Source: a virus. From it: a stretch of 30,778 bases of DNA. The translations under genes and the position numbers were made by a program. The notes under the pieces were generated by a model. It was given only the letters and a program-made list of their open reading frames with translations, had not been told where the DNA came from and did not search any database. The stretch lies in the IMG/VR virus record IMGVR_UViG_3300025310_000003, positions 1 to 30,778 of that record; one strand, given 5' to 3'. Positions 1 to 30,778 of this stretch are shown piece after piece. The number at the start of each line of letters is the position of its first letter. Within the stretch, counting starts at the first letter, position 1.

Positions 1-127
1 CCCGGTCCTCTGGAGTAAGCCATGCCCCCCCCCCGCACGCAGCCGCCATCGGACGATGACAGCACCGCCCGGTACGAACACGGCGAGGGAAGCCGGCGCG
101 GCGGGTCCAGCGGGGACATTCCCTCGG
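1..127. repeat. Terminal direct repeat, copy 1 (identical to 30652..30778); circular-closure overlap
   Basis: Bases 1-127 (cccggtcctctggagtaagccatgcccccccccc...ggggacattccctcgg) recur base for base at 30652-30778. The repeat carries the SD, the ATG and the first 35 codons of the 22..399 gene. Confidence 0.95.
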
Positions 128-399
128 CGGACATGCTTGGGCTGCTGCGTGAGGTCCTGCGGGCGCAGCGCCAGCTCCATGAGGACGTGGCGACCATCAA
201 GATCCGCCTGGAGCGTGGTAGCGTGGCGCTGGATGGCGTCTCCGAGCTGCCGAAACAGATGCAGGACCACCGGGATGCCATCGTGGAGCTGCGAACCAAG
301 ATGGCCGGCGTCCTGTGGGTTGCAGGCGTGGCCGGCGCAACCGGCATTGGCGGACTGGTGACGGCCCTCCTGGGCATCATCACCACGGGCGGTCAGTGA
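22..399 (+). CDS. Tail-anchored membrane protein: disordered N-terminus, coiled-coil-like middle, C-terminal TM segment. Possible lysis/spanin-like component.
   Basis: GGAG lies 6 nt upstream of the ATG. GC3 is high from codon 2. The C-terminus VLWVAGVAGATGIGGLVTALLGII is a hydrophobic helix. The stop overlaps the next start (TGATG). Confidence 0.7.
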   Translation: MPPPRTQPPSDDDSTARYEHGEGSRRGGSSGDIPSADMLGLLREVLRAQRQLHEDVATIKIRLERGSVALDGVSELPKQMQDHRDAIVELRTKMAGVLWVAGVAGATGIGGLVTALLGIITTGGQ

Positions 400-1130
400 T
401 GCGCGCCGCAGCCATCCTGGTTGCCCTGGCTGCCGTGTCTTTGGGCGGGTGCGTCCGTATGACGGATGGCCAAGCGGCGCAGGCTGCCCAGGCCAAGGCC
501 AACATGGCAGCCGCCGGGGCCATCGACAAGGCGGCGCCGACTGCGGAAGATCCTGGGGCCTATCGGCATGCTGCGGCCGTGCTGCGGGAGGCAGCCCTGG
601 CCCGTATGTCCGCCGCCATGGCCAACCTGGACTTGCCAGCGCCTGAAACCGGCCCGGACATCCTGGCCCCGGCCGGCGTCCCGGCTGCGCCCGCGATCAC
701 GGCGGAATCGCACGCAGCTGCGGTGGCGGCTAGCGATCCACCGTCCGGCATGCTCGGGATGGTCCTGGGCTGCATCGGCGGTGTGGGACTGCTGGCCGTG
801 GGCGTCCTGCGGCATAGCCCCGGTGCCTTCGGCCTGTTGGCCAACCTGGCCCACACCGTCATGGCCCCCAAGGCCACCAAGGACATGCGTGCCGCCCAGG
901 CCAAGGCTGCGGACATCGCGGATCAGGCCATCGCCTATGGACATGCCGTGACAGCCACCGCAGTAGCCCATGGATTAGGCGACAAGGTGGAGGCCGTGAA
1001 GGCGCAGGCCGCGCAGATCCAGGACCGCCTGGGCATCCGCGACCACGTGGCCGTCATCCTGGCCAAGCACAAGGCGGGCGGTTCTGGCATCCGTCCAGCC
1101 ATCCCGGCGCCGCCCAGCCCCCCGACCTGA
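399..1130 (+). CDS. Lipoprotein (lipobox LGGC) with an additional internal TM helix
   Basis: The in-frame ATG at 399 overlaps the upstream TGA. The N-terminus MRAAAILVALAAVSLGGC is a classical signal peptidase II signal. The internal segment MLGMVLGCIGGVGLLAVGVL is hydrophobic. The protein is Ala/Pro-rich. Confidence 0.7.
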   Translation: MRAAAILVALAAVSLGGCVRMTDGQAAQAAQAKANMAAAGAIDKAAPTAEDPGAYRHAAAVLREAALARMSAAMANLDLPAPETGPDILAPAGVPAAPAITAESHAAAVAASDPPSGMLGMVLGCIGGVGLLAVGVLRHSPGAFGLLANLAHTVMAPKATKDMRAAQAKAADIADQAIAYGHAVTATAVAHGLGDKVEAVKAQAAQIQDRLGIRDHVAVILAKHKAGGSGIRPAIPAPPSPPT

Positions 1131-1144
1131 ACGAGCTGCCCCCC

Positions 1145-1912
1145 ATGCCCACCTGGAACAATTTCGGCGCCACGGAGGCCATGGCTCTGCGGCGCTTTGC
1201 CCTGTCTGGCTATGTCCCCACCGCCGCAGATTTCGGCGGAACGGACGCGGTGGCGGACGCCCTGGCCGATGCCGCAGGGGAAATCATCCAGGCCATGCCG
1301 TCCGCCCGCTTGGCGGAATTGCAGCACCCGGAATTCCTGGTGGTGGTGAATCGGGCTGCGGACGGACAGTCCGCCTTCACGATCCCGGCGGGATGGCGCC
1401 CCATGGTGGCCGGGTCGCTGCATGTGTGGCGCGGGCAGCCGCAGGCATTCGTGTCTCGCCCGATCTACCGCACCAATCCCTGGGGAGCAGGCGGCGACAT
1501 GCCGCTGCCGGTGCCGACCCCGACGCCGCCCGGCGCGGCCATGGAATTGGAGGAAAGCCGATTCAGCGTCGGCGGGGATGGATACACCGTGACCCTCGAC
1601 GCGCCGCTGGCGCGCAATGATCAGGTGGTGGTAGCGTTGGACGTGGACGTGGCGTCCGCGTCCTACACCATCCCCAGCCTGGCCGGCGTGGTCGCCACTG
1701 GCGCCGCCGCCGCCCTGGGAGCCAAGGTCTATCCGCAGGCATCAGCGGAATGGATCCTGGTGGATCGCCTGGCGCAGCAGTTTGCGGACCACGTGGCAGG
1801 CATCGCGCGCGGCGCCATCGTCCCAGCGGAAGTCCGCTCCGCCGTGTGGTGGAAGGCCCCAGATACGACGGAGTCCATGAGCATGTCCTCTGTCCGCATG
1901 TATCGAGGCTGA
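1145..1912 (+). CDS. Hypothetical virion protein (possible head-tail connector/adaptor)
   Basis: 255-aa ORF in the co-directional structural operon with high GC3. Its stop overlaps the next start. No diagnostic motif recognised. Confidence 0.6.
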   Translation: MPTWNNFGATEAMALRRFALSGYVPTAADFGGTDAVADALADAAGEIIQAMPSARLAELQHPEFLVVVNRAADGQSAFTIPAGWRPMVAGSLHVWRGQPQAFVSRPIYRTNPWGAGGDMPLPVPTPTPPGAAMELEESRFSVGGDGYTVTLDAPLARNDQVVVALDVDVASASYTIPSLAGVVATGAAAALGAKVYPQASAEWILVDRLAQQFADHVAGIARGAIVPAEVRSAVWWKAPDTTESMSMSSVRMYRG

Positions 1913-2553
1913 TGGTGGACCCGTCGGCCCGTCAGGCGTCTCTGGTAGCCCAGGGCAACGCCGTGGCAGCTCAGGCAGCGGACCGCGTGGCCGTGATCAT
2001 GGGCGCCAGTCTGACCGGCGCCGCGCAGGCCGCCGTGGCTGCGACCAAGGGCGATTCTGGCGCTGGGCTGGATGAGGCGTCTGCGGACATGGCTGCCGCC
2101 CGCGCAGCCATGGCCACCATGGCCACGGATACGGAGGCAGCCCTGGCAGCCACGGCAACCCTGGCAGCCCTGGTCGCCATGGTGTCTGGTTGGCATGGGG
2201 AAATCGCCCTGGCCAACCAGGAATTGCCAGATGGCCTGGATATCGTGGCGGACGTAGCGGGGAACCAGCTCGTGGATGCCATGCGGTCCTGGCCCATCGT
2301 TGGCCACACGGCAGAGGAATGGGGTGCCAACCTGGCACGGTCCTGGCGCTTCCAGGCGGACGGCTTGGTAGGCAATGCCGCCGCCACCGGCACAGACGCG
2401 CATCTCGTAGCGGATTTTCTGGACCTTGCCCGGCGCACCCAGGACAACGCCAAGACCTTGGCTGTGGAGGCGTTCCACGCGGGGGCCGGGGCCGCTCGTG
2501 CCGCTATTCCTGCGGCACTGGAGCGTCTGATGGCAGGCGGCATCCATGGCTGA
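1912..2553 (+). CDS. Hypothetical Ala-rich virion protein
   Basis: The in-frame ATG at 1912 overlaps the TGA of the upstream gene (TGATG). The 213-aa ORF ends 8 nt inside the MuF gene. Confidence 0.6.
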   Translation: MVDPSARQASLVAQGNAVAAQAADRVAVIMGASLTGAAQAAVAATKGDSGAGLDEASADMAAARAAMATMATDTEAALAATATLAALVAMVSGWHGEIALANQELPDGLDIVADVAGNQLVDAMRSWPIVGHTAEEWGANLARSWRFQADGLVGNAAATGTDAHLVADFLDLARRTQDNAKTLAVEAFHAGAGAARAAIPAALERLMAGGIHG

Positions 2554-4600
2554 TCCGATCACCCTGACCATCTCCGTCTCCGACCTGGCGGCATCGTTGG
2601 CGAAACAGGACGCCGCTGCACTGGCAACCGGCGCCCTGGACCGGACGCAGGTGTGGTATGAATTCCTGACCCAGGAGGACACCAGGGTCAGGCCCAGCCA
2701 TCGCGCCCTCCATGGGACCGTGTGGCGCAGCGGCGACCCCAACGCACCCGTGCCGCCCCTCGACTACGGATGCCGGTGCTTCATCCGCTATGTGGCGGCG
2801 CCGGGATCGGAGGCTGCCAACATCCTGCCCACAGCGCCGTCCGCGCCGACCACCCAGGCGGAGGCCATAGGTACGTTCCTGGACAAGGATCCGACCCTCA
2901 CAGCCGCAGGCATCGATTGGCGGAAGCTGGCTGCCCAAGCGGATGCGCTGGACCGTGCCGACCGGGAGCGGTTCCTGGCCATGTCCATCGCCAAGGCTGC
3001 TGACATGCCCATGGGGCACGCGCGGGAGGTGGCGCGGATGATCCTGTCCCAGGGCCAAGCCCGCGCCCTCCGCGCCCCGCCGCTGTCGGCGGAGGAGGCC
3101 GCCGCCAAGGCCACGCAGCACGCGGACGCCTGGCCAGTCGTGGACGCCCAGGCCGTCCAGGCCGCAGCCCAGGCCGCAGCCCAGGCCGCAGCCCAGGACG
3201 CCGTGCAGGCGTCCGCCACGGTGAAGGCCAAGGCCAAGGCCATCATGGAGGCTGCCGCCTCCGGGACGTCTCTGGCGCTGGACAAGCCCCTGGCCCTGCC
3301 GGGCGTATTGGGCTGGATCGCAACGAACAAAACCAGCATCCAGACCACCACACGCACGGCATCGCCGGCCGACCTGGCTGGCATGATTCCCACGGTGTCG
3401 AGCCTGGACGGCGCCGACCTGTCCGCTGGCATCACCGGCACGGCCACCACACAGACACCCGTCGTGGCGGTGGAACTGCCGGGCGGAACCTTCATCGTTT
3501 CGGGCCACACCACGGCCATGGTGGCCCTGGCCACGGGGACGTCTGTCCCCGTCACCATCTACACGGCGGCTGCCATCGCCCAGGCCCAAGCCGTTGCAGC
3601 GGCGGCACGGCAGGCCGCTGCCCAGGCTGCCAAGGCCACAGCCGTTGCCCAGGCACAGGCGCAGGCGCAGGCCGCGGCGGCGGTGTCCAAGGCCATGGGC
3701 GGCCCGGACCTTCCGCCTGTCCCGGCGACCATTCCACCCACGGGGAAGATTCCCACGGCGCCGCACAAGCCCTGGGACAAGCCGCAGCCATCCGATCCTG
3801 GCGCCCTGGCATCCTGGAAGGCCAGCCACGTGTCCATCCAGACCCAGGAGCTGCTGGCGACCCTGCGCCCCCAGACCCAGCCGGACCTGGCCGGGAAGCC
3901 GGGTCGCCCGATCACGGCGGACCACGTGGAAGCCATGGTGAGGGATCCAGCCACGCCAGGCGGAACCTTCAGCCGGGACATCTACCGCAGCGACGTGAAG
4001 ATGCGCCAGGCCGACGAGTCTGCGGCCATCATGGACGGCGAGGCCACCACCGAAGAGCGGATGGGCATACGGAAGTTTACCCGCTATTGGGACTTCATCA
4101 TGCGCCGGGTAGACATGGGGGACACTGACGAACAGTTGGCGGCGCATCTGCGCTACCACAAGCCCGGCGACGATGCATCCGATATTCCAGACCTGATCAC
4201 CAAGGCCCGCACATATCACGCGGCGGCATATGCTGCCATGGCCCGCATTCCAGCTCGCCGCTATGAATACCTGTATCGTGGTCACAGGAACCTGACCGCA
4301 GCGGCGGTGGCATCCGTGTTGGGGGCGACAGAACTCGATTTCGGCTCCCTGTCATCGGCCACCACAAACCCGCGCACTGCCGTTGGGTTTGCGAGCGCCA
4401 CGGGCGGGCGCCACGCCATGATATTCCGCATGAAAAACGCTTCCGGACTGCCGATTTCGGCAGTATCGCAGTATCCAGACGAGGATGAGGTTCTCATCTC
4501 CCGCCAGCACCGATACCGTATCACCGGATACGCCCTGGATACAACCGCCTCGGCGCAGGCGCCACGGTGGATCGTAGACCTGGAGCAGATGCACCCATGA
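2546..4600 (+). CDS. MuF / SPP1 gp7-like minor head protein fused to a C-terminal ADP-ribosyltransferase (R-S-E type) toxin domain
   Basis: N-terminus: QEDTRVRPSHRALHGTVW...PLDYGCRCF matches the Phage_Mu_F signature (R.sH..l.G ... nCRC). C-terminus: YLYRG (Arg, cgt at 4276-4278), FGSLSSATT (STS-like, about 4340-4366) and PDEDEVLISR (E-x-E, gag gat gag at 4481-4489). The middle of the protein consists of low-complexity AQAA linkers. Confidence 0.85.
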   Translation: MADPITLTISVSDLAASLAKQDAAALATGALDRTQVWYEFLTQEDTRVRPSHRALHGTVWRSGDPNAPVPPLDYGCRCFIRYVAAPGSEAANILPTAPSAPTTQAEAIGTFLDKDPTLTAAGIDWRKLAAQADALDRADRERFLAMSIAKAADMPMGHAREVARMILSQGQARALRAPPLSAEEAAAKATQHADAWPVVDAQAVQAAAQAAAQAAAQDAVQASATVKAKAKAIMEAAASGTSLALDKPLALPGVLGWIATNKTSIQTTTRTASPADLAGMIPTVSSLDGADLSAGITGTATTQTPVVAVELPGGTFIVSGHTTAMVALATGTSVPVTIYTAAAIAQAQAVAAAARQAAAQAAKATAVAQAQAQAQAAAAVSKAMGGPDLPPVPATIPPTGKIPTAPHKPWDKPQPSDPGALASWKASHVSIQTQELLATLRPQTQPDLAGKPGRPITADHVEAMVRDPATPGGTFSRDIYRSDVKMRQADESAAIMDGEATTEERMGIRKFTRYWDFIMRRVDMGDTDEQLAAHLRYHKPGDDASDIPDLITKARTYHAAAYAAMARIPARRYEYLYRGHRNLTAAAVASVLGATELDFGSLSSATTNPRTAVGFASATGGRHAMIFRMKNASGLPISAVSQYPDEDEVLISRQHRYRITGYALDTTASAQAPRWIVDLEQMHP
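3147..3196 (+). repeat. 12-bp tandem repeat (gccgcagcccag x3, plus degenerate flanks) encoding an (AAQA)n linker inside the MuF gene
   Basis: Read directly: gcccaggccgtccag gccgcagcccag gccgcagcccag gccgcagcccag gac. Confidence 0.8.
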
Positions 4601-4779
4601 ACACCAGCTCGTCCGCCGATGCATGGGAGGCGGACATCCCACCGCCGTCCGCAGACACCACGCCGCCGCCCGTCCCTGCGGGGAAGCGGCGGCCGGCACA
4701 TGAGGCCGACCAATATACGGTCCGCCGTATCCGCCTGACGCCGCTGCCGGATGGCACCATCCACGCATCCCTGGAATAG
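4597..4779 (+). CDS. Small Pro-rich protein directly downstream of the ART toxin domain (candidate cognate immunity/partner; function unknown)
   Basis: The ATG overlaps the MuF stop (ATGA). 60 aa with high GC3. It ends 2 nt before the next gene. Confidence 0.5.
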   Translation: MNTSSSADAWEADIPPPSADTTPPPVPAGKRRPAHEADQYTVRRIRLTPLPDGTIHASLE

Positions 4780-4781
4780 CC

Positions 4782-5345
4782 ATGTCCGGCAAGGATCTAT
4801 CGGGGCTGGCGCGGATCGCAGGCGCGCGCAACATCCTGGCCATGGCCGTCATGGCAGGCTGCCGAGAATATGCCAACGGCGGATACCGTGGGCGCCCCAT
4901 CGTGGCGTCTCATTTCACCAGCGGCAACGCAGGGCGCTACGGATGGCCCCCCCTGTCAGCCGGGTACGGGGCATGGAAGGCTGGGGCGACCAAGGACATA
5001 CAGAACACCATGCGCGCCGCCGGCCGGTCTGTCCCCCGTGGGAAGGCCCTGCCCATGTTGGTGTTGACCGGCGCTCTGCGGGACGCGATCACGGCCGGCC
5101 AGGCGCGGGTGGTCAGGACCGGTCCTGAAACCGTGACCATGACGTGGGACGGCCTCCCGGACTATGCTGTCTATCTCCACGAAGGCACGCCCACGATGCC
5201 CAAGCGGTCCCCGGTGGAACCCAACGCTGCGGACCGCCAGGCCATCATCGATGCGGCAAACCGCTACCTCACGCAAGCCGTGGGGACCGGCGGCGCCGTC
5301 CCTGTGACCACGGCTGCCGTCCCCAACCGGGCGCGGGTCGGATAG
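4782..5345 (+). CDS. HK97 gp10-like head-tail joining / tail-completion protein
   Basis: LTGALRDAI ... YAVYLHEGTPTMPKRSP resembles the HK97 gp10 family signature (tG.L..si ... YA.y.E.Gt ... P). It sits just upstream of the tube gene. Confidence 0.6.
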   Translation: MSGKDLSGLARIAGARNILAMAVMAGCREYANGGYRGRPIVASHFTSGNAGRYGWPPLSAGYGAWKAGATKDIQNTMRAAGRSVPRGKALPMLVLTGALRDAITAGQARVVRTGPETVTMTWDGLPDYAVYLHEGTPTMPKRSPVEPNAADRQAIIDAANRYLTQAVGTGGAVPVTTAAVPNRARVG

Positions 5346-14654: not shown

Positions 14655-15401
14655 TCATGGCGCGGGCGCCGGCCGGGCACCTGCCGCCGACTCCTGGGCA
14701 TTCCCCTGTCTGGCGCGGTGGCGCTTCCCCCACGCAGTGGCGACCGATTCGTAATCCTTGGCCCAGCGGGATTGTATGCCATGGGCGCGGCGAGCGGCGG
14801 CGCATGCGGCCAGGCATGCCAGTGCATCCTCCAGGCACGTGGCGCCCGCGTCCAGCGCCAGCCCCTGCCATTCCTCCAATGCCGTGTCATCGCTGGCGAA
14901 CCGATGCCGGGCCAGGGCCGTGCGGAATCGTTCGCGGGATGACTTGAGCGGTGGCTTCGGTGGCGTCGGTGGCGTTGGTGGCGTCGGTGGCGTTGGTGGC
15001 GTTGGTGGCGTTGGTGGCGTTGGTGGCGTTGGTGGCGGGACTGCCAGCTGGGTTGGCGCCTGGCCTGGGAGCGGGCGCTTCCACCGGGCCTCGGCAGCCA
15101 TGCGGGCGCGGGCCAGGGTCCGCCCATAGGACTCCACGGCATCTGCCGGATAGTAGGCCACCACCAGATCCGACCCCTCCCACCGCCAGAGGGGGCATGG
15201 CCGTGATACTTCCGCCAGCGTCACCCGCGCCTGCTGTTGCCAGTGCCGGTCCCCCCATGTTTTGCAGTCGGCTATCCGTCCACCGTCTGCCAGCATCACG
15301 GCCAGCCGGAGCAGGCATATCCAGGTGGCCCGATCCAGTGGTTCCGCCCCGATGAATGCGACGCTGTCCAATGCTTCAGCGGAGATGTAGATATGTCGCA
15401 T
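14655..15401 (-). CDS. DUF1376-like early protein with a (TPP)8 linker (possible replication/primosome-associated role)
   Basis: MRHIYISAEALDSVAFIGAEPLDRATWICLLRLAVMLADGGRI resembles the DUF1376 N-terminal domain. The central linker reads PPPTPPTPPTPPTPPTPPTPPTPPTPPKPP. An alternative start at 15458 lies inside a strong hairpin. Confidence 0.55.
   Translation of the reverse strand: MRHIYISAEALDSVAFIGAEPLDRATWICLLRLAVMLADGGRIADCKTWGDRHWQQQARVTLAEVSRPCPLWRWEGSDLVVAYYPADAVESYGRTLARARMAAEARWKRPLPGQAPTQLAVPPPTPPTPPTPPTPPTPPTPPTPPTPPKPPLKSSRERFRTALARHRFASDDTALEEWQGLALDAGATCLEDALACLAACAAARRAHGIQSRWAKDYESVATAWGKRHRARQGNAQESAAGARPAPAP
14951..15040. repeat. 9-bp tandem repeat (ggtggcgtY), about 10 units, encoding the (TPP)n linker on the - strand
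   Basis: Read directly: ggtggcttc ggtggcgtc ggtggcgtt ggtggcgtc ggtggcgtt x5 ggtggcggg. Confidence 0.9.
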
Positions 15402-15421
15402 GCTGTTCTCGTATCGGGATC

Positions 15422-15464
15422 GGACGGATGCCCGCCTGGCATATGTCCCGGCGGGCATCCGTCC
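15422..15464 (-). promoter_or_regulatory. Intercistronic 15-bp perfect inverted repeat (stem) with a 13-nt loop containing CATATG
   Basis: ggacggatgcccgcc tggcatatgtccc ggcgggcatccgtcc. It lies 6 nt downstream of the exonuclease stop and 20 nt upstream of the ATG at 15401. No U-tract follows it on the - strand. Confidence 0.7.
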
Positions 15465-15470
15465 AGTGTG

Positions 15471-16448
15471 TCAGTATGGGTCCTCCGCCGCCGTGGCCTC
15501 GGCGACGTGGCGGCTGAACCACGCTGGCGGGACTACCGGCTGACGTGCCATGCCCAGGTCCCGTGGCCAATCATCGCGCCGCCACAAATCCAACGCCAGC
15601 TCCAGGCTCCGCATGTTGGTGTCGTGGGCGGCATCCAGGATGGCGTCCGACAGGTCGTAGACGCGGACGCGATGGACAGACCCCTTCTCGACGGCCAGAA
15701 GCGCAGCAGGAAGCCTGCGTCCGGTTTCCTGCTGCACGATCCACCGATACCAAGCCATCTGCCGGTGGTAGTGATGGCGGAAGATATCATCCATGAACCC
15801 GGAGATGTTGTCGCAGGTCTTCAGGTCGACGATGGCGGACCATGCGTCCGCGGATGCCGCCGCGCTGACGATCCAGTCGAGCTTCGCTTTGATCGGAACC
15901 CCCCCTTCATCCTGAAAAAACGCAGCCTCCGGGATGCCGCTTCGCAGGAGTCCGGCTGCGTCTGGGGTCTGCATGGCTGCGGTGCGCATGCTTACGACCA
16001 TGGCCACCTCCTTGGCGTCGGCCACCAGGCGGCCCTCCGCCTCCTGGGCCACCAGCCACGCACGACACGGCCCTGCGTTCCAATTCCAGGGCTTTTCTTC
16101 CGCCGGCGGGCCGTCCGGATATTCCGCTGGCGTGGGCTTGTCCGGATGGGAAGCCTGCCATTCCCTGCAATATTTGGCACGCGGATTCCAGGGTTTCATG
16201 TCCGGCGGCGCGGTGGTGTAGGTTGGGGGCACGCACGCCACACGGGCAGCTACGGCGGTGTCACCCTCCAGCACGGCCAGGTGGGTCAGCCTGCCCACCC
16301 GGAATGCATCCGTCTCCGGCTTGCCGATCAGTCCGCGCATGCGGCCGATGGCCCCAGCTGGTCCCCAGGTTTCCAGGTCCCGCAGGAAATGGAAGGAAAT
16401 GGCCTGTGTCCCGTGGTATTCACGGTCGGACATGTCAAGGCGGATCAT
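15471..16448 (-). CDS. RecE/RecB-family PD-(D/E)XK exonuclease (DUF3799 / exodeoxyribonuclease VIII-like)
   Basis: DREYHG...ISFHFL at the N-terminus, then KAKLDWIV...AIVDLKT (D..D-x-K) and YHRQMAWY (QxxxY). ATGA overlap with the upstream ERF gene. Confidence 0.75.
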   Translation of the reverse strand: MIRLDMSDREYHGTQAISFHFLRDLETWGPAGAIGRMRGLIGKPETDAFRVGRLTHLAVLEGDTAVAARVACVPPTYTTAPPDMKPWNPRAKYCREWQASHPDKPTPAEYPDGPPAEEKPWNWNAGPCRAWLVAQEAEGRLVADAKEVAMVVSMRTAAMQTPDAAGLLRSGIPEAAFFQDEGGVPIKAKLDWIVSAAASADAWSAIVDLKTCDNISGFMDDIFRHHYHRQMAWYRWIVQQETGRRLPAALLAVEKGSVHRVRVYDLSDAILDAAHDTNMRSLELALDLWRRDDWPRDLGMARQPVVPPAWFSRHVAEATAAEDPY

Positions 16449-17146
16449 GCGGCCCCCGCGTGATGAGCCGCCATGCCCTCAAGCTCGGTCAGGGCTGCCA
16501 TCTTGTTCATCCCGTGCTTGGTTTTCAAAGCGTTCGCCTGATGATGGGCTTCCTCCGCCCCCAGGGCGCTCGTCAGCTTGGCCAGGGCGGCATCCCACCT
16601 GGCCCTCCCGGTGGCCTGTCCCGTGGGCCCTGCGGGCGGGGCGGCATGCTCGGGCGTGGGCGGCGCGGCATGCTCGGGCGTGGGCGGCGCCTGGCGTTGG
16701 TTCGGCTGGCGATCGTAGCGCCGCTCGACGTGGTGGCCGTCCGCCGCATTGCCATCATCATCATCGTCTGCGGCCAAGCCCAACAGGGCCGTGATGCCGT
16801 AGCGGCGGGCGTAGGTGATCGCGGAGCCGAGGGCCTGGTTTCCGGGCCTGTCTGTCTTTACCGGAACAGCCGTTCCCAGGAACTCCCCCGAGGCGTGAAC
16901 GATGATGGTTTCCACAGACAGCCCGTTGTCGTCGGTGTGCACCGTATGGACCACGGACAGGCCGTTGGCTGCCAGCGGCCCACGGATGCAGTCCATGATG
17001 TTGTCCAGCGTGGCATAATCGAAGGAATACGGTGATCCCTCACGCGGGCGGACCGTGACCGACCTGTTTTTGGTCAGGGGTTGGAAGGCGGCATGGGCCT
17101 TGGCCAACGCGGTGGCCAGGTTTGCCATGGTTTCGGAACGGATCAT
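16445..17146 (-). CDS. erf: ERF-family single-strand annealing recombinase
   Basis: LATALAKAHAAFQPLTKN...YSFDYATLDNIMDCIRGPLAANGL...HASGEF...QALGSAITYARRYGITALLGLAADDDDDG is the classic ERF pattern. GGAG lies 8 nt upstream of the ATG at 17146. Confidence 0.85.
   Translation of the reverse strand: MIRSETMANLATALAKAHAAFQPLTKNRSVTVRPREGSPYSFDYATLDNIMDCIRGPLAANGLSVVHTVHTDDNGLSVETIIVHASGEFLGTAVPVKTDRPGNQALGSAITYARRYGITALLGLAADDDDDGNAADGHHVERRYDRQPNQRQAPPTPEHAAPPTPEHAAPPAGPTGQATGRARWDAALAKLTSALGAEEAHHQANALKTKHGMNKMAALTELEGMAAHHAGAA
16641..16688. repeat. Perfect 24-bp tandem duplication inside erf (encodes APPTPEHA x2)
   Basis: gcggcatgctcgggcgtgggcggc occurs twice in direct succession. Confidence 0.9.
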
Positions 17147-17202
17147 GGGATGGACTCCAGGGGTGGACGATGGGGTGGGATGAGCGGCGAGCGGACCGAG
17201 CG

Positions 17203-17328
17203 TCACGGCCTCCGGATGAGGCGCCACGCGGCGCGGACCAGGAAGCGGACCAGGCGCAGGTCCCGCGTCATGTCGCGAGCGCTGCGGCCCTGGCCACCGA
17301 GGATGAGGGGAGGGGTTGGGTCATGCAT
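17203..17328 (-). CDS. Small (41 aa) first gene of the leftward early operon, function unknown
   Basis: ATG CAT GAC ... CCG TGA translates to MHDPTPPLILGGQGRSARDMTRDLRLVRFLVRAAWRLIRRP. About 36 of 41 codons end in G/C. AGGAG lies 7 nt upstream. It is too short for the supplied ORF track. Confidence 0.55.
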   Translation of the reverse strand: MHDPTPPLILGGQGRSARDMTRDLRLVRFLVRAAWRLIRRP

Positions 17329-26104: not shown

Positions 26105-26974
26105 ATGCCCATCGTGACGGCCCACCGAGTCCAGCGGGAGCGTATTCTGGCGGCATGTCGCCAGACCGGCGTTGCCGACGCCGCTGGCGTGGACGCTGGA
26201 GCGTGGGCATCCACGACATCACCACGGGTGCTGCCGGGGGATCGCGCCGGCTATGTGGGCGGACTCCACCGTGGGCGCCTGCCGGCCCTGGAAATCCACC
26301 AGACGGCGGACACCTGGGAGCGACAGGCCACATCCGGCGGCACCATCACCACGGAATGGATCATGCGCGCCCATGTCCCGGAACCATCCTTGGCAGAGGC
26401 CGAGGAGCGGGCGCGTGGCATGCTCCTGGTGGCGCTGGCCAACCTGCGGGCAGATCCGTACCTGACGGAAGGCAGGGAACAATTCGATGCCGTCCAAGCC
26501 GGCCCGCTGGGGCATAGCCTGGCTGTCCGCTTCACCCTGTTCCACACCTACGACCGGGCCACCTACGAAACGGACGGCATCATTGCGCCGCCGCCCGCGC
26601 CGCCGGCCAGCGACCCGGACCCCACGGACATGGCGTTCGTTGCAGCGGAAACGGTGTCTGGCGGGCGCGTGGTCTGGTACGACCCGGCCGCGCCCGGATG
26701 GCGCTACGCCTCCCATCTGAACCCGGCCCACATGGGCGTTTCCCTGGGTGTCACGCTCGGGGCCATCATGGCTGGCGCCACCGGCTCAGCACGCATGTAT
26801 GGCATCATGACCGACCCGGCATGGTCCTTCCCGGCGCCTGTGACCCTGTGGCTGGGAGACGCCGGGAATCTGCTGATGTCACCGCCCTCAACCGGCTTCC
26901 TGCGGGAAGTGGCCAGGGCTATCGAACCGAACCGCATCATCGTGGAGCCGGAAGCCCCGGTGGTCATCCTCTAA
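26105..26974 (+). CDS. Virion protein: DUF3168-like N-terminal half plus a C-terminal beta domain paralogous to the next gene
   Basis: The C-terminus GRVVWYDPAAPGW...GVSLGVTLGAIMAGATGSARMYG...VTLWLGDAGNLLMSPPSTGFLREVARAIEPNRIIV aligns by eye with the C-terminus of 26995..27516. Confidence 0.55.
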   Translation: MPIVTAHRVQRERILAACRQTGVADAAGVDAGAWASTTSPRVLPGDRAGYVGGLHRGRLPALEIHQTADTWERQATSGGTITTEWIMRAHVPEPSLAEAEERARGMLLVALANLRADPYLTEGREQFDAVQAGPLGHSLAVRFTLFHTYDRATYETDGIIAPPPAPPASDPDPTDMAFVAAETVSGGRVVWYDPAAPGWRYASHLNPAHMGVSLGVTLGAIMAGATGSARMYGIMTDPAWSFPAPVTLWLGDAGNLLMSPPSTGFLREVARAIEPNRIIVEPEAPVVIL

Positions 26975-26994
26975 CGCAACCAAGGACCATTCCC

Positions 26995-27516
26995 ATGCCA
27001 GCAAAGAAATTCCTCCGCTTGGTGTCCGGTATCATCACCGAGATAGCCGGCACCGTCACCAGCGCCGGGGCCGGCAACGATGGCGATATCGTTGCCCTCG
27101 ACTCGACCGGCCGCATCGATCCGTCCATGATGCCCGTGGGCGTCGCGGCAGAGGTCAAGGTGGCGGTGGCGTCGGAAGCCCTGGCGGGCGGCGATATGGT
27201 CAACCTGTGGCTGGATGCCGGGGTTCTCAAGGCACGCAAGGCCGACGCTTCGACCACCGGCAAGGAAGCCAACGGATTCGTGCTGGTGGCCGTCTCCACC
27301 GGCGCCAATGCCACCGTGTACCTGCCGAGTCAGACGAACACGGCCCGGACCGGCCTCACCATCGGAGCCCATTACTGGCTCAGCGATGCATCGCCTGGTG
27401 GCGTCACCACCACCCCGCCGACCGGCGCCGGCAAAGTGTCGCAATTCGTGGGCAAGGCCCTGTCAGCGACCGAGCTGGTCTTTGTTCCCGGCCCGGCCAT
27501 CACCACGGCGGCCTGA
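26995..27516 (+). CDS. Fibre / decoration-like virion protein
   Basis: AGGA lies 8 nt upstream. The N-terminus contains AGNDGDIVALDSTGRIDPSMMP, a g.iv.Ld..G.iD.s..P motif common in phage fibres. The C-terminal beta domain is shared with the previous gene. Confidence 0.6.
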   Translation: MPAKKFLRLVSGIITEIAGTVTSAGAGNDGDIVALDSTGRIDPSMMPVGVAAEVKVAVASEALAGGDMVNLWLDAGVLKARKADASTTGKEANGFVLVAVSTGANATVYLPSQTNTARTGLTIGAHYWLSDASPGGVTTTPPTGAGKVSQFVGKALSATELVFVPGPAITTAA

Positions 27517-29425: not shown

Positions 29426-30520
29426 ATGCCAGACCTTACCGTTTCCGCAACCATCGATGCCTTTATGGGCGCGGCCGATGCTGCCGCCGCCAGGACCGCC
29501 ATCAGCGCGGAAGCAGCTGGCGCCGCAGCCGCCGCGCAATCTGCGGCCATCGCGGCATCGCAGCCGCGCCCGGAGGAACGGACCGCCAGCTTTACAGCGG
29601 CAGACGCAGGGGTTTACATCACAACCGCAACGCTGACCGTGAACGACCCGTCACCGGTACAGGGGTATTCATACAGCGTGGAAGTCCGCAACGGCACGGC
29701 GACCATAGGCGGCACGGCCTACGCCGCGCCCTGTCGTGTGGTGCGGACCTTCCATGCAGGCGCCTGGGCAGACCGGGTGGACTCACCGGATGCGTCATTC
29801 CTCACGGCCGGCATCATGCCGTCCGCCAGGTTGGCGGCGGACTGTCTCAAGTCTCAAGCCAACCGGGAAACGTTCATCTATGACGACATGGCCGGAAGTG
29901 GCGTCAACGGGCCGGGGCAATGGACGGCTTCCACCTCGGGCGGATCCTGGGCGACGACGTCAGTCCAGAGTGGTGATCGGTACGGGGTGGTCCGTGCAGC
30001 GACCGGGACCGCCGCCAGCACCAACCAACGGGGCGCGGCCCACACGGGAACACCCGGATCGTCCGGTCCGATCAGGCTGGGCGGCATGTTGGTGGAGTGG
30101 TGCGCCGATGTTGCGCCAGCCCTGGCGCTGTTTTCGGGCGGACTGAGCGGTGAGATATTCGTGGGGTTGGCGTCGGGCGTGACCGTTCCGTCTCATGGTG
30201 TGTACCTCGCCAGCCGCGACGGCGGGAACTGGCTCGCCGTGACCCGCGCCAGCAGCATCGAAACCGTCACCGATACCGGCGTGGCGCCGGCCCTGGGAAC
30301 CTGGGTGAACTACCGCGTGGACGTGGAGGCGGACCGCAGCGCCGTTCGCCACTATGTCAACGGAGCCCTGGTTGCCACGCACACAACGAACATTCCGGCT
30401 GCCAATGTCAACCTGTCGCAAATCATCAGCGTGAACCGCGTCAGCACCACCGGGACCAGCGTGGCGCTGGACGTTGACTTTGCGTGGCTCCGCCTGTACC
30501 GCAACGCCAACCGCTGGTAG
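29426..30520 (+). CDS. Fibre / receptor-binding protein with a C-terminal concanavalin-A/LamG-like jelly-roll
   Basis: N-terminus AADAAAARTAISAEAAGAAA (the a.aR.alGa motif seen in fibre N-termini). C-terminus WVNYRVDVEADRSAVRHYVNGALVATH...VDFAWLRLYR is typical of LamG-like lectin folds. A G-rich SD lies 5 nt upstream. Confidence 0.6.
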   Translation: MPDLTVSATIDAFMGAADAAAARTAISAEAAGAAAAAQSAAIAASQPRPEERTASFTAADAGVYITTATLTVNDPSPVQGYSYSVEVRNGTATIGGTAYAAPCRVVRTFHAGAWADRVDSPDASFLTAGIMPSARLAADCLKSQANRETFIYDDMAGSGVNGPGQWTASTSGGSWATTSVQSGDRYGVVRAATGTAASTNQRGAAHTGTPGSSGPIRLGGMLVEWCADVAPALALFSGGLSGEIFVGLASGVTVPSHGVYLASRDGGNWLAVTRASSIETVTDTGVAPALGTWVNYRVDVEADRSAVRHYVNGALVATHTTNIPAANVNLSQIISVNRVSTTGTSVALDVDFAWLRLYRNANRW

Positions 30521-30531
30521 GTTACCATACC

Positions 30532-30669
30532 GTGAAATACCGTATCGTGCATGCATCCGGCTGGGTCGAGTTTGCGCACGAAGCAGCCGCCATCGTGTAC
30601 CGGGACGAACACCATCCCGGCTCCCCCATCATCACCCTGCCCCTCGACCCACCCGGTCCTCTGGAGTAA
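30532..30669 (+). CDS. Small hypothetical protein (45 aa from GTG 30532)
   Basis: The portion of the 30484..30669 ORF that does not overlap the upstream gene. Its last codons contain the GGAG that serves the 22..399 gene across the circular junction. Confidence 0.35.
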   Translation: MKYRIVHASGWVEFAHEAAAIVYRDEHHPGSPIITLPLDPPGPLE

Positions 30670-30778
30670 GCCATGCCCCCCCCCCGCACGCAGCCGCCAT
30701 CGGACGATGACAGCACCGCCCGGTACGAACACGGCGAGGGAAGCCGGCGCGGCGGGTCCAGCGGGGACATTCCCTCGG
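30652..30778. repeat. Terminal direct repeat, copy 2; holds a duplicate partial copy (30673..30778) of the 5' end of the 22..399 gene
   Basis: Exact 127-bp identity with 1..127. The unique genome length is therefore 30,651 bp. Confidence 0.95.

Follow-up and report, generated by a model that had tools for sequence, protein, structure and literature searches.

The viral DNA analysed here comprises positions 1 to 30,778 of the IMG/VR record IMGVR_UViG_3300025310_000003, and this whole stretch of 30,778 nucleotides is referred to as the window. Its late structural operon holds, directly 5' of the neck gene Neck1, an open reading frame (ORF) of 684 amino acids that joins part of a MuF head-morphogenesis protein at its N-terminus, through a long linker, to a predicted R-S-E mono-ADP-ribosyltransferase (ART) domain at its C-terminus. 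The boundaries of this MuF-ART gene, which an earlier note made from the sequence alone had proposed, are exact, and its composition is of the coding type, with a G+C content at third codon positions (GC3) of 0.81. The coordinates of the gene, its domains and its neighbours are collected in Table 1.

Both profile searches and structure prediction indicate that the C-terminal domain is an intact R-S-E ART. The Pfam family ART (PF01129) matched residues 571–663 at 27.0 bits, above its cut-off of 22.3, whereas the ADPrib_exo_Tox family (PF03496) stayed below its own cut-off (16.9 versus 23.4). The ordered R-S-E triad that the earlier note had read from the sequence is present in full, as Y577-R578-G579, G600-S-L-S603-S604-A-T-T607 and E646-D-E648-V-L-I. 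When the C-terminal ~205 residues of five ART-bearing family members were aligned (alignment A2) and used as a profile against the PDB sequences, the best match was the Vis toxin of Vibrio splendidus (E = 3.4e-8), followed by rat ART2.2 and C2-I, and the R, S-T-S and E-x-E motifs were in register with those of all three proteins. The AlphaFold2 model of residues 481–684 (predicted local distance difference test, pLDDT, 80.8; predicted TM score, pTM, 0.77) has the helical N-terminal lobe and split β-sandwich of the ART fold, and Foldseek returned 126 PDB matches at E ≤ 1e-3, the best 50 of which are all ARTs. The top structural match was again Vis (E = 1.8e-8, with the highest TM score, 0.66), and the other neighbours included Plx2A, a Listeria ART-ARH toxin, ExoS, VahC, SpvB, C2-I, HopU1, Certhrax, C3 and CDTa, as well as Tre1 of the Tre1-Tri1 toxin-immunity pair. 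Among the viral structures in BFVD, the best matches were ART domains joined to 'head morphogenesis', 'minor capsid' and 'portal' proteins, and VIP2-like ARTs and Alt-type RNA-polymerase ADP-ribosylases were matched as well. The likeness to C3/iota/VIP2 toxins and to T4 Alt that had been suggested from the motifs is thus found at the level of the fold, but it does not extend to a significant score with the PF03496 model.

Across 95 of the closest ART relatives, the catalytic serine (S604) and the second glutamate (E648) are invariant, and the arginine (R578), the glycine and the first glutamate (E646) are at least 90% conserved. In Vis, E189 and E191 are needed for toxicity, and mutating the E-x-E glutamates of Vis and of the EFV toxin abolishes toxicity in yeast (PMC3000352). 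These glutamates align to E646 and E648. In the C2/iota/ART2 group the E-x-E motif goes with arginine as the acceptor, and by this motif the present domain is probably arginine-specific. The S-T-S motif reads S-A-T both here and in a 99%-identical twin of the protein, and this substitution, together with the PF03496 score below its cut-off, is what would speak for a catalytically inactive domain with a structural or binding role only. Such an inactive domain is highly improbable: R578, S604, E646 and E648 are all retained, the serine that is kept is the conserved first one, and a cognate small ORF accompanies the domain. Within the gene, GC3 runs at 0.80–0.92 and drops to 0.62–0.72 from about residue 511 onwards (window ~4076–4597), a lower value in the ART core that suggests, and is compatible with, later acquisition.

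At the other end of the protein, residues 36–82 carry the sequence VWYEF...RVRPSHRALHG...DYGCRCFIRY, and the N-terminus matched Phage_Mu_F (PF04233; 33.6 bits against a cut-off of 29.6, E = 7e-8), TIGR01641 phageSPP1_gp7 (41.2 bits against 39.65) and the PHROG minor-head and head-morphogenesis families. The MuF/SPP1 gp7 signature reported for the first ~85 residues accordingly passes both family cut-offs, but it represents only the C-terminal half of MuF. Residues 35–79 correspond to positions 63–110 of the 112 in the Pfam profile, the TIGR01641 match covers positions 60–104 of 109, and just 35 residues precede W37, so that the N-terminal helical half of a full-length MuF is missing and only the W...RxRPxH...CRC half is present. 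Every protein of the family likewise opens directly with this C-terminal half. No other part of the protein is as well conserved as the half-MuF core, in which 44 positions are invariant across eight sequences whose C-termini differ; this indicates that the module is under selection. In the AlphaFold model, residues 31–170 form a β-core and a helical bundle (pLDDT 70–83). One relative, P0008, has an intein-like insertion of ~330 amino acids inside the MuF motif, exactly at DYG/CRC (the slash marking the junction), which begins with C-FLPG... and ends with ...VSN/C.

The linker between the two domains varies strongly in length and sequence between relatives and matched no Pfam family. The model of residues 1–480 was of low confidence (pLDDT 53), with low-confidence helix or Ala/Gln/Pro-rich linker beyond residue ~170, and it had no significant PDB neighbour, weak ParB-N-like matches at E 6–9 being disregarded. 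A small α/β unit at residues ~262–340 (window 3329–3565; VELPGGTFIVSGHTT...) is common only to this protein and one relative, P0002. The 99%-identical twin, P0001 (680 amino acids), differs by a four-residue QAAA deletion within tandem QAAA repeats at residues ~201–209 (window ~3146–3170), and the low-complexity linker is therefore polymorphic in length.

The 5.8-billion protein-cluster collection yielded only eight relatives of the MuF-ART protein, five of which retain both domains, and neither DNA nor tblastn searches gave a match among GenBank phages. The twin is encoded on a separate 30,762-bp contig, and at least eight distinct loci in the lineage have the fusion. An assembly artefact behind the fusion is ruled out, since several contigs that come independently from different samples carry it. 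A single match was obtained in 185,579 species-representative genomes, a 35-kb contig binned into a Solibacteraceae metagenome-assembled genome (MAG), and the binning of this one relative is weak evidence for a probable high-G+C soil-type bacterial host, as opposed to a Firmicute. The ART profile by itself found 1,414 relatives at E ≤ 1e-3 among 1.84 billion representative proteins. In a Pfam scan of 95 of the closest, Phage_Mu_F was present in 36, PF01129 in 64 and PF03496 in 55, and jackhmmer detected MuF in 61 of 145 among the ART matches listed.

That MuF-toxin fusions are a described class, as had been noted, is confirmed by the literature (PMC5576092, PMC3482391, PMC9503650). The EFV toxin from a prophage of Enterococcus faecalis V583 combines MuF with an ART of the E-x-E type and depends on that motif for its toxicity in yeast (Fieldhouse et al., 2010; PMC3000352), MuF was listed as a toxin-trafficking domain by Zhang et al. 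(2012; PMC3482391), and 'MuF toxins' were defined by Jamet et al. (2017; PMC5576092), with ARTs making up 14% of the 191 described. Iyer et al. (2022; PMC9503650) found many ARTs of the Alt/VIP2 family fused to MuF and probably packaged in the head and injected, and reported ARTs in only ~3% of siphoviruses and podoviruses. Since these studies describe it, the MuF-ART architecture is a further example of one already known; what is specific to the lineage is the half-MuF, the position away from the portal, the lack of any lysogeny gene found and a tiny co-varying ORF.

Table 1. Features of the MuF-ART locus and of the head and packaging genes, in window coordinates.
Feature	Position	Strand	Remarks
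255-aa gene, first of the module	1145..1912	+	Orthologues of 253–259 aa, same position in related loci read
213-aa gene	1912..2553	+	Orthologues of 203–225 aa, immediately 5' of MuF gene in related loci read
MuF-ART fusion gene, 684 aa	2546..4600	+	ORF; Phage_Mu_F and ART above Pfam cut-offs
Half-MuF core, residues 35–83	2648..2794	+	W37, R49-P50-x-H52, G57, D73-Y-G-C76-R-C78; invariant in alignment A1
Linker, residues 91–480	2816..3985	+	Conserved helical part to ~170, then Ala/Gln- and Pro-rich low complexity
Predicted R-S-E mono-ADP-ribosyltransferase domain, residues 481–684	3986..4597	+	N-terminal helical lobe and β core
R578 codon (Y-R-G)	4277..4279	+	Predicted NAD-binding arginine
S604 codon	4355..4357	+	First serine of S-T-S (here S-A-T)
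E646-D647-E648 codons	4481..4489	+	ARTT-loop E-x-E; E648 predicted catalytic Glu; aligned to Vis E-A-E
60-aa ORF	4597..4779	+	ATG overlaps ART stop (ATGA); GC3 0.79
Neck1/tail-completion gene, downstream edge of the module	4782..5345	+	phrog_26, E = 1.1e-11; orthologues of 173–233 aa in all loci
TerS	starts 20529		
TerL	starts 20895 (20.9–22.2 kb)		
Portal	~22.2–23.7 kb		
Scaffold	starts 24060		
Major capsid	starts 24905		

Bases 30652–30778 of the window are an exact copy of bases 1–127, and this 127-base terminal repeat shows the window to be a complete circular (or terminally redundant) assembly with 30,651 bp of unique sequence, so that the gene at 22..399 (+) is split by an arbitrary start point. 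The sequence has a G+C content of 67%, its genes average a GC3 of 0.79 ± 0.04, and no tRNA genes were found in the genome. Several unannotated genes follow the major capsid gene and then, across the junction of the circle, come the 255-aa and 213-aa genes, MuF-ART, the 60-aa ORF and Neck1, from which the tail genes extend to 13.7 kb. The MuF-ART gene is indeed not beside the portal, as the earlier note had pointed out: it starts at 2.5 kb and lies ~9 kb from the portal gene on the 30.65-kb circle, with ~10 genes between them, including scaffold and major capsid. The five genes form a module whose order (~255-aa gene, ~205-aa gene, half-MuF with a variable extension, small ORF or ORFs, ~185-aa Neck1) was the same in all related loci read, namely the contigs of the eight relatives and of three further ART relatives, plus IMG/VR loci. 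The first gene, whose stop overlaps the next start (TGATG), has orthologues with a mean column identity of 63% (alignment A6) and matched no Pfam, PHROG or PDB family, and PDB profile searches with the 255-aa and 213-aa families returned only spurious short-motif matches (a cadherin and a designed propeller). The proposed place between connector and neck genes holds on the 3' side, where Neck1 lies, whereas the upstream 'connector' genes have no detectable family. The 213-aa gene ends within the start of MuF-ART, with an 8-nucleotide overlap (ATGGCTGA) that is usual in the relatives, and its product is probably a conserved, translationally coupled partner of MuF-ART. Two other explanations of this junction were rejected. 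Three results contradict the idea that the 213-aa gene is the missing N-terminal half of a split MuF: an artificial fusion failed to lengthen the Pfam match, hhalign gave a probability of 0.1% between the upstream family and classical MuF proteins, and a Pfam scan found a MuF signal at E ≤ 10 in 0 of 8 orthologues. A programmed frameshift joining the two ORFs is ruled out because the junction differs across loci, with overlaps of 8 or 14 nucleotides or gaps of 2–3 nucleotides.

As in polymorphic toxins, a constant MuF N-terminus is followed by a variable C-terminal domain. An ART C-terminus is present in the window and its twin and in related loci L001, L002/3/10, L004, L005, L020, L021 and L022, and the same N-terminus carries a borderline DUF3626-like domain in L006 and L011, C-termini with HELGH in L007 and HEMAH in L012, and none in L013. 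The DNAs of L002 and L006 are ~89% identical up to MuF codon ~227. Beyond that point they are unrelated until a homologous stretch of 82 bp in the 5' end of the convergent small ORF, and homology is restored from the next gene onwards; these breakpoints indicate that the warhead was exchanged together with the main part of the small ORF.

The 60-aa ORF of the window encodes an acidic/Pro-rich N-terminus and a C-terminal strand-DG-strand motif. Each of the lineage's eight ART loci (8/8) has a homologous ORF of 43–62 amino acids directly at the 3' end of the ART sequence, with an acidic or Pro-rich N-terminus and the same C-terminal motif. It lies on the plus strand with a 4-nucleotide overlap in six loci and on the minus strand, in convergent orientation, in L002/3 and L004. 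Where the C-terminal domain is another one, unrelated ORFs take its place: the DUF3626-like loci have a different small ORF together with a Zn-ribbon protein, the small ORFs of L007 and L012 differ again, and the toxin-less L013 has none, its Neck1 gene following MuF directly with an 8-nucleotide overlap. Since the type of small ORF tracks the type of toxin and the ORF is missing where there is no toxin, it is a candidate inhibitor (immunity-like) gene, and such co-variation is a circumstantial signature of toxin-immunity pairs. MuF toxins usually have small ORFs (<150 amino acids) directly 3', which are proposed immunity genes (PMC5576092), and the MuF-fused Apk2 toxin has an immunity protein, IapK, that occludes the active site by direct binding (PMC12226406); by analogy, the product of the 60-aa ORF is most likely a cognate ART inhibitor. 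Small ORFs beside ART genes outside the lineage (L023, L024) have an architecture similar to that of this hairpin family. Between the MuF-toxin gene and Neck1, L002 (11524–12803), L006 (11746–13323) and L011 (7581–8546) contain two to four small minus-strand moron-like genes, and in the DUF3626-like loci this block includes the Zn-ribbon protein (215–218 amino acids, CxxC).

We consider it somewhat probable, at roughly 55%, that MuF-ART is a head-loaded effector that is ejected with the DNA and ADP-ribosylates one or more host arginines, and that it is kept silent in the producing cell by its cognate small inhibitor. The protein would be a minor virion component made of the half-MuF (~31–170), a flexible Ala/Gln/Pro-rich linker and the ART domain, synthesized late from the structural operon in coupling with the 213-aa partner gene. 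By analogy with SPP1 gp7 and Mu F, the half-MuF would tether it to the portal or the head interior. It would be loaded into proheads and exit the capsid together with the DNA when the phage next infects a cell. R578, S604 and E646-x-E648 would then form the NAD+ site from which ADP-ribose is moved onto arginines of one or more host proteins, and the 60-aa protein would silence the enzyme in the producing cell. The C-terminal domain and the small ORF behave as an exchangeable cassette, as in polymorphic toxin systems. We infer packaging and ejection only from the MuF fusion and the late-operon position, and likewise infer enzymatic activity, the acceptor residue, the target and the inhibitor function.

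Several points weigh against this interpretation, which is built from sequence data of an uncultured phage of an uncultured host. With only half of MuF present, association with the portal or head is less secure than it would be with a full-length domain, and ~9 kb separate the gene from the portal, which most muf genes adjoin, a portal/terminase neighbourhood being typical (85%; Jamet et al., 2017; PMC5576092). The S-T-S motif is altered to S-A-T, yet its conserved first serine is kept. The hidden Markov model of the hairpin small ORFs was negative on the small ORFs of L023 and L024 and borderline on that of L026 (E = 0.012), and because the L023 and L024 ORFs are not statistically homologous to the family, the inhibitor idea rests on context. 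It is also not obvious why a lytic producer, which dies anyway, would need an immunity protein.

The incomplete MuF and the distance from the portal would equally suit an enzyme that acts late within the producing cell, in the manner of T4 ModA/ModB, and is not packaged, its half-MuF being a remnant. In L026 (850–2518), a short half-MuF (192 amino acids) and an ART (247 amino acids) are encoded by separate adjoining genes, with a 58-aa ORF after them; this arrangement, possibly an intermediate of fusion or fission, indicates that the ART can exist without covalent attachment to MuF. An unpackaged enzyme is nevertheless decidedly unlikely, given that the supposed remnant is the most conserved part of the protein whatever C-terminus follows, that the fusion recurs across the loci of the lineage, and that the nearest ART relatives are often fused to MuF or portal proteins.

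The question of lysogeny bears on a further alternative, in which the phage is temperate and MuF-ART, as a classical MuF polymorphic toxin, serves inter-bacterial competition: the small immunity gene would be active in lysogens, and bacteria related to them but not immune would be poisoned by particles set free or by the toxin alone. The polymorphic C-termini and their exchange together with the small ORF fit this picture, toxin forms of MuF have been seen only in temperate phages (Jamet et al., 2017; PMC5576092), and L002, L003, L004, L006 and L011 carry the small ORF on the other strand, among moron-like small genes, from where it could be expressed independently of the late operon. Nevertheless, in keeping with the earlier note's statement that there is no integrase, the sizeable ORFs of the complete 30.65-kb genome matched no integrase, repressor or excisionase family. 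No integrated copy occurred among the 185,579 species-representative genomes, the sole match, the 35-kb MAG-binned contig, showing no sign of integration, and in the window the small ORF shares its strand with the late operon and overlaps the stop codon of the ART. We regard a competition toxin of this kind as unlikely; several small early ORFs are without annotation and leave room for modes of lysogeny other than integration.

The injected-effector reading that we prefer can be set against known systems. MuF-ART resembles the MuF toxins, including EFV, in its MuF N-terminus, linker, variable C-terminal toxin and small ORF directly 3', and in the proposed route of head packaging followed by injection; its ART is of the same E-x-E type as that of EFV, which has been shown to be toxic in yeast. 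It differs from the MuF toxins in having only the C-terminal MuF half, at the extreme N-terminus, in lying outside the portal/terminase module, before Neck1 and within a lineage-specific five-gene module, in the lack of any detected integrase or other lysogeny gene, and, on weak evidence, in its probable high-G+C soil-type host in place of a Firmicute. With Vis (PDB entries 4XZJ and 4Y1W), C2-I, iota/CDTa, C3, ExoS, SpvB, VahC, Plx2A and rat ART2.2 it shares the fold and the ordered R, S-T-S and E-x-E motifs, although identity to Vis and the other R-S-E mono-ARTs is merely 12–21% and S-A-T replaces S-T-S. The Vis-type R-S-E mono-ARTs are secreted stand-alone or binary toxins with eukaryotic targets, whereas here the domain is attached to a phage head protein. 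T4 Alt is a head-packaged, injected ART that acts on RNA polymerase. Like Alt, MuF-ART is a phage-encoded R-S-E ART made late, and its proposed route is the established route of Alt; however, no relationship in sequence is detectable beyond the common fold, and Alt has no MuF and reaches the head by means of another signal. T4 is moreover a myovirus, whereas the present genome has a siphovirus-like tail module, with Neck1 followed by tail genes. The MuF-Apk2 toxin with IapK/Aph1 offers a model for the 60-aa ORF, with a MuF-fused enzymatic toxin followed by one or more small immunity genes, but its chemistry is that of a (p)ppApp synthetase, its immunity proteins are unrelated in sequence, and Apk2 systems are found in prophages.

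A more far-reaching proposal, which we put forward only tentatively and hold to be rather doubtful, is that this small integrase-less siphovirus-like lineage, one relative of which is binned with an acidobacterial MAG, has shifted effector delivery from the portal-adjacent packaging module to a five-gene 'effector cassette' at the head-tail junction. The half-MuF and its coupled ~205-aa partner would serve as a universal loading adaptor, the warheads (ART, DUF3626-like or zincin-like) would be swapped together with tiny hairpin-type inhibitors, and L026 would be an intermediate. If this were true, MuF toxins would not be confined to temperate phages and ~140 MuF residues would suffice for packaging. 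The general picture, in which phages append ARTs to head proteins for delivery, is unchanged; what is added is a MuF-ART effector with good support, in a phage lineage of which very few members have been sampled, and it bears on whether the conserved C-terminal half of MuF suffices for head loading, whether MuF toxins exist in phages without lysogeny genes, and whether the 43–62-aa 'acidic tail plus β-hairpin' proteins are a new class of ART inhibitors.

Some further features of the genome lie outside the MuF-ART module. A recombination module at 15471–17227 (−) comprises an ExoVIII-like PDDEXK nuclease (DUF3799, phrog_412) and an ERF-family annealing protein. A 267-aa ORF at 14655–15458 (−) has ~8 PTPP repeats in a run (PPTPPTPPTPP...) and no family match. 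The adjoining genes at 26105–26974 and 26974–27516 (+), 3' of the major capsid gene, both match phrog_4368, a family of unknown function, and are a probable tandem duplication. The genes at 22–399 and ~399–1130 (+) lie amid the structural genes; a hydrophobic segment closes one of them, and the other starts with a lipoprotein-type signal (MRAAAILVALAAVSLGGC). They may have a role in lysis or at the membrane, for which their location would be unusual. Between the capsid genes and the MuF module, 29426–30520 (+) encodes a 364-aa protein with an SO2946-like C-terminal/concanavalin-A-like lectin domain; in relatives this position holds DUF285, Laminin_G_3 or GDSL-lipase genes, which marks it as a variable slot.

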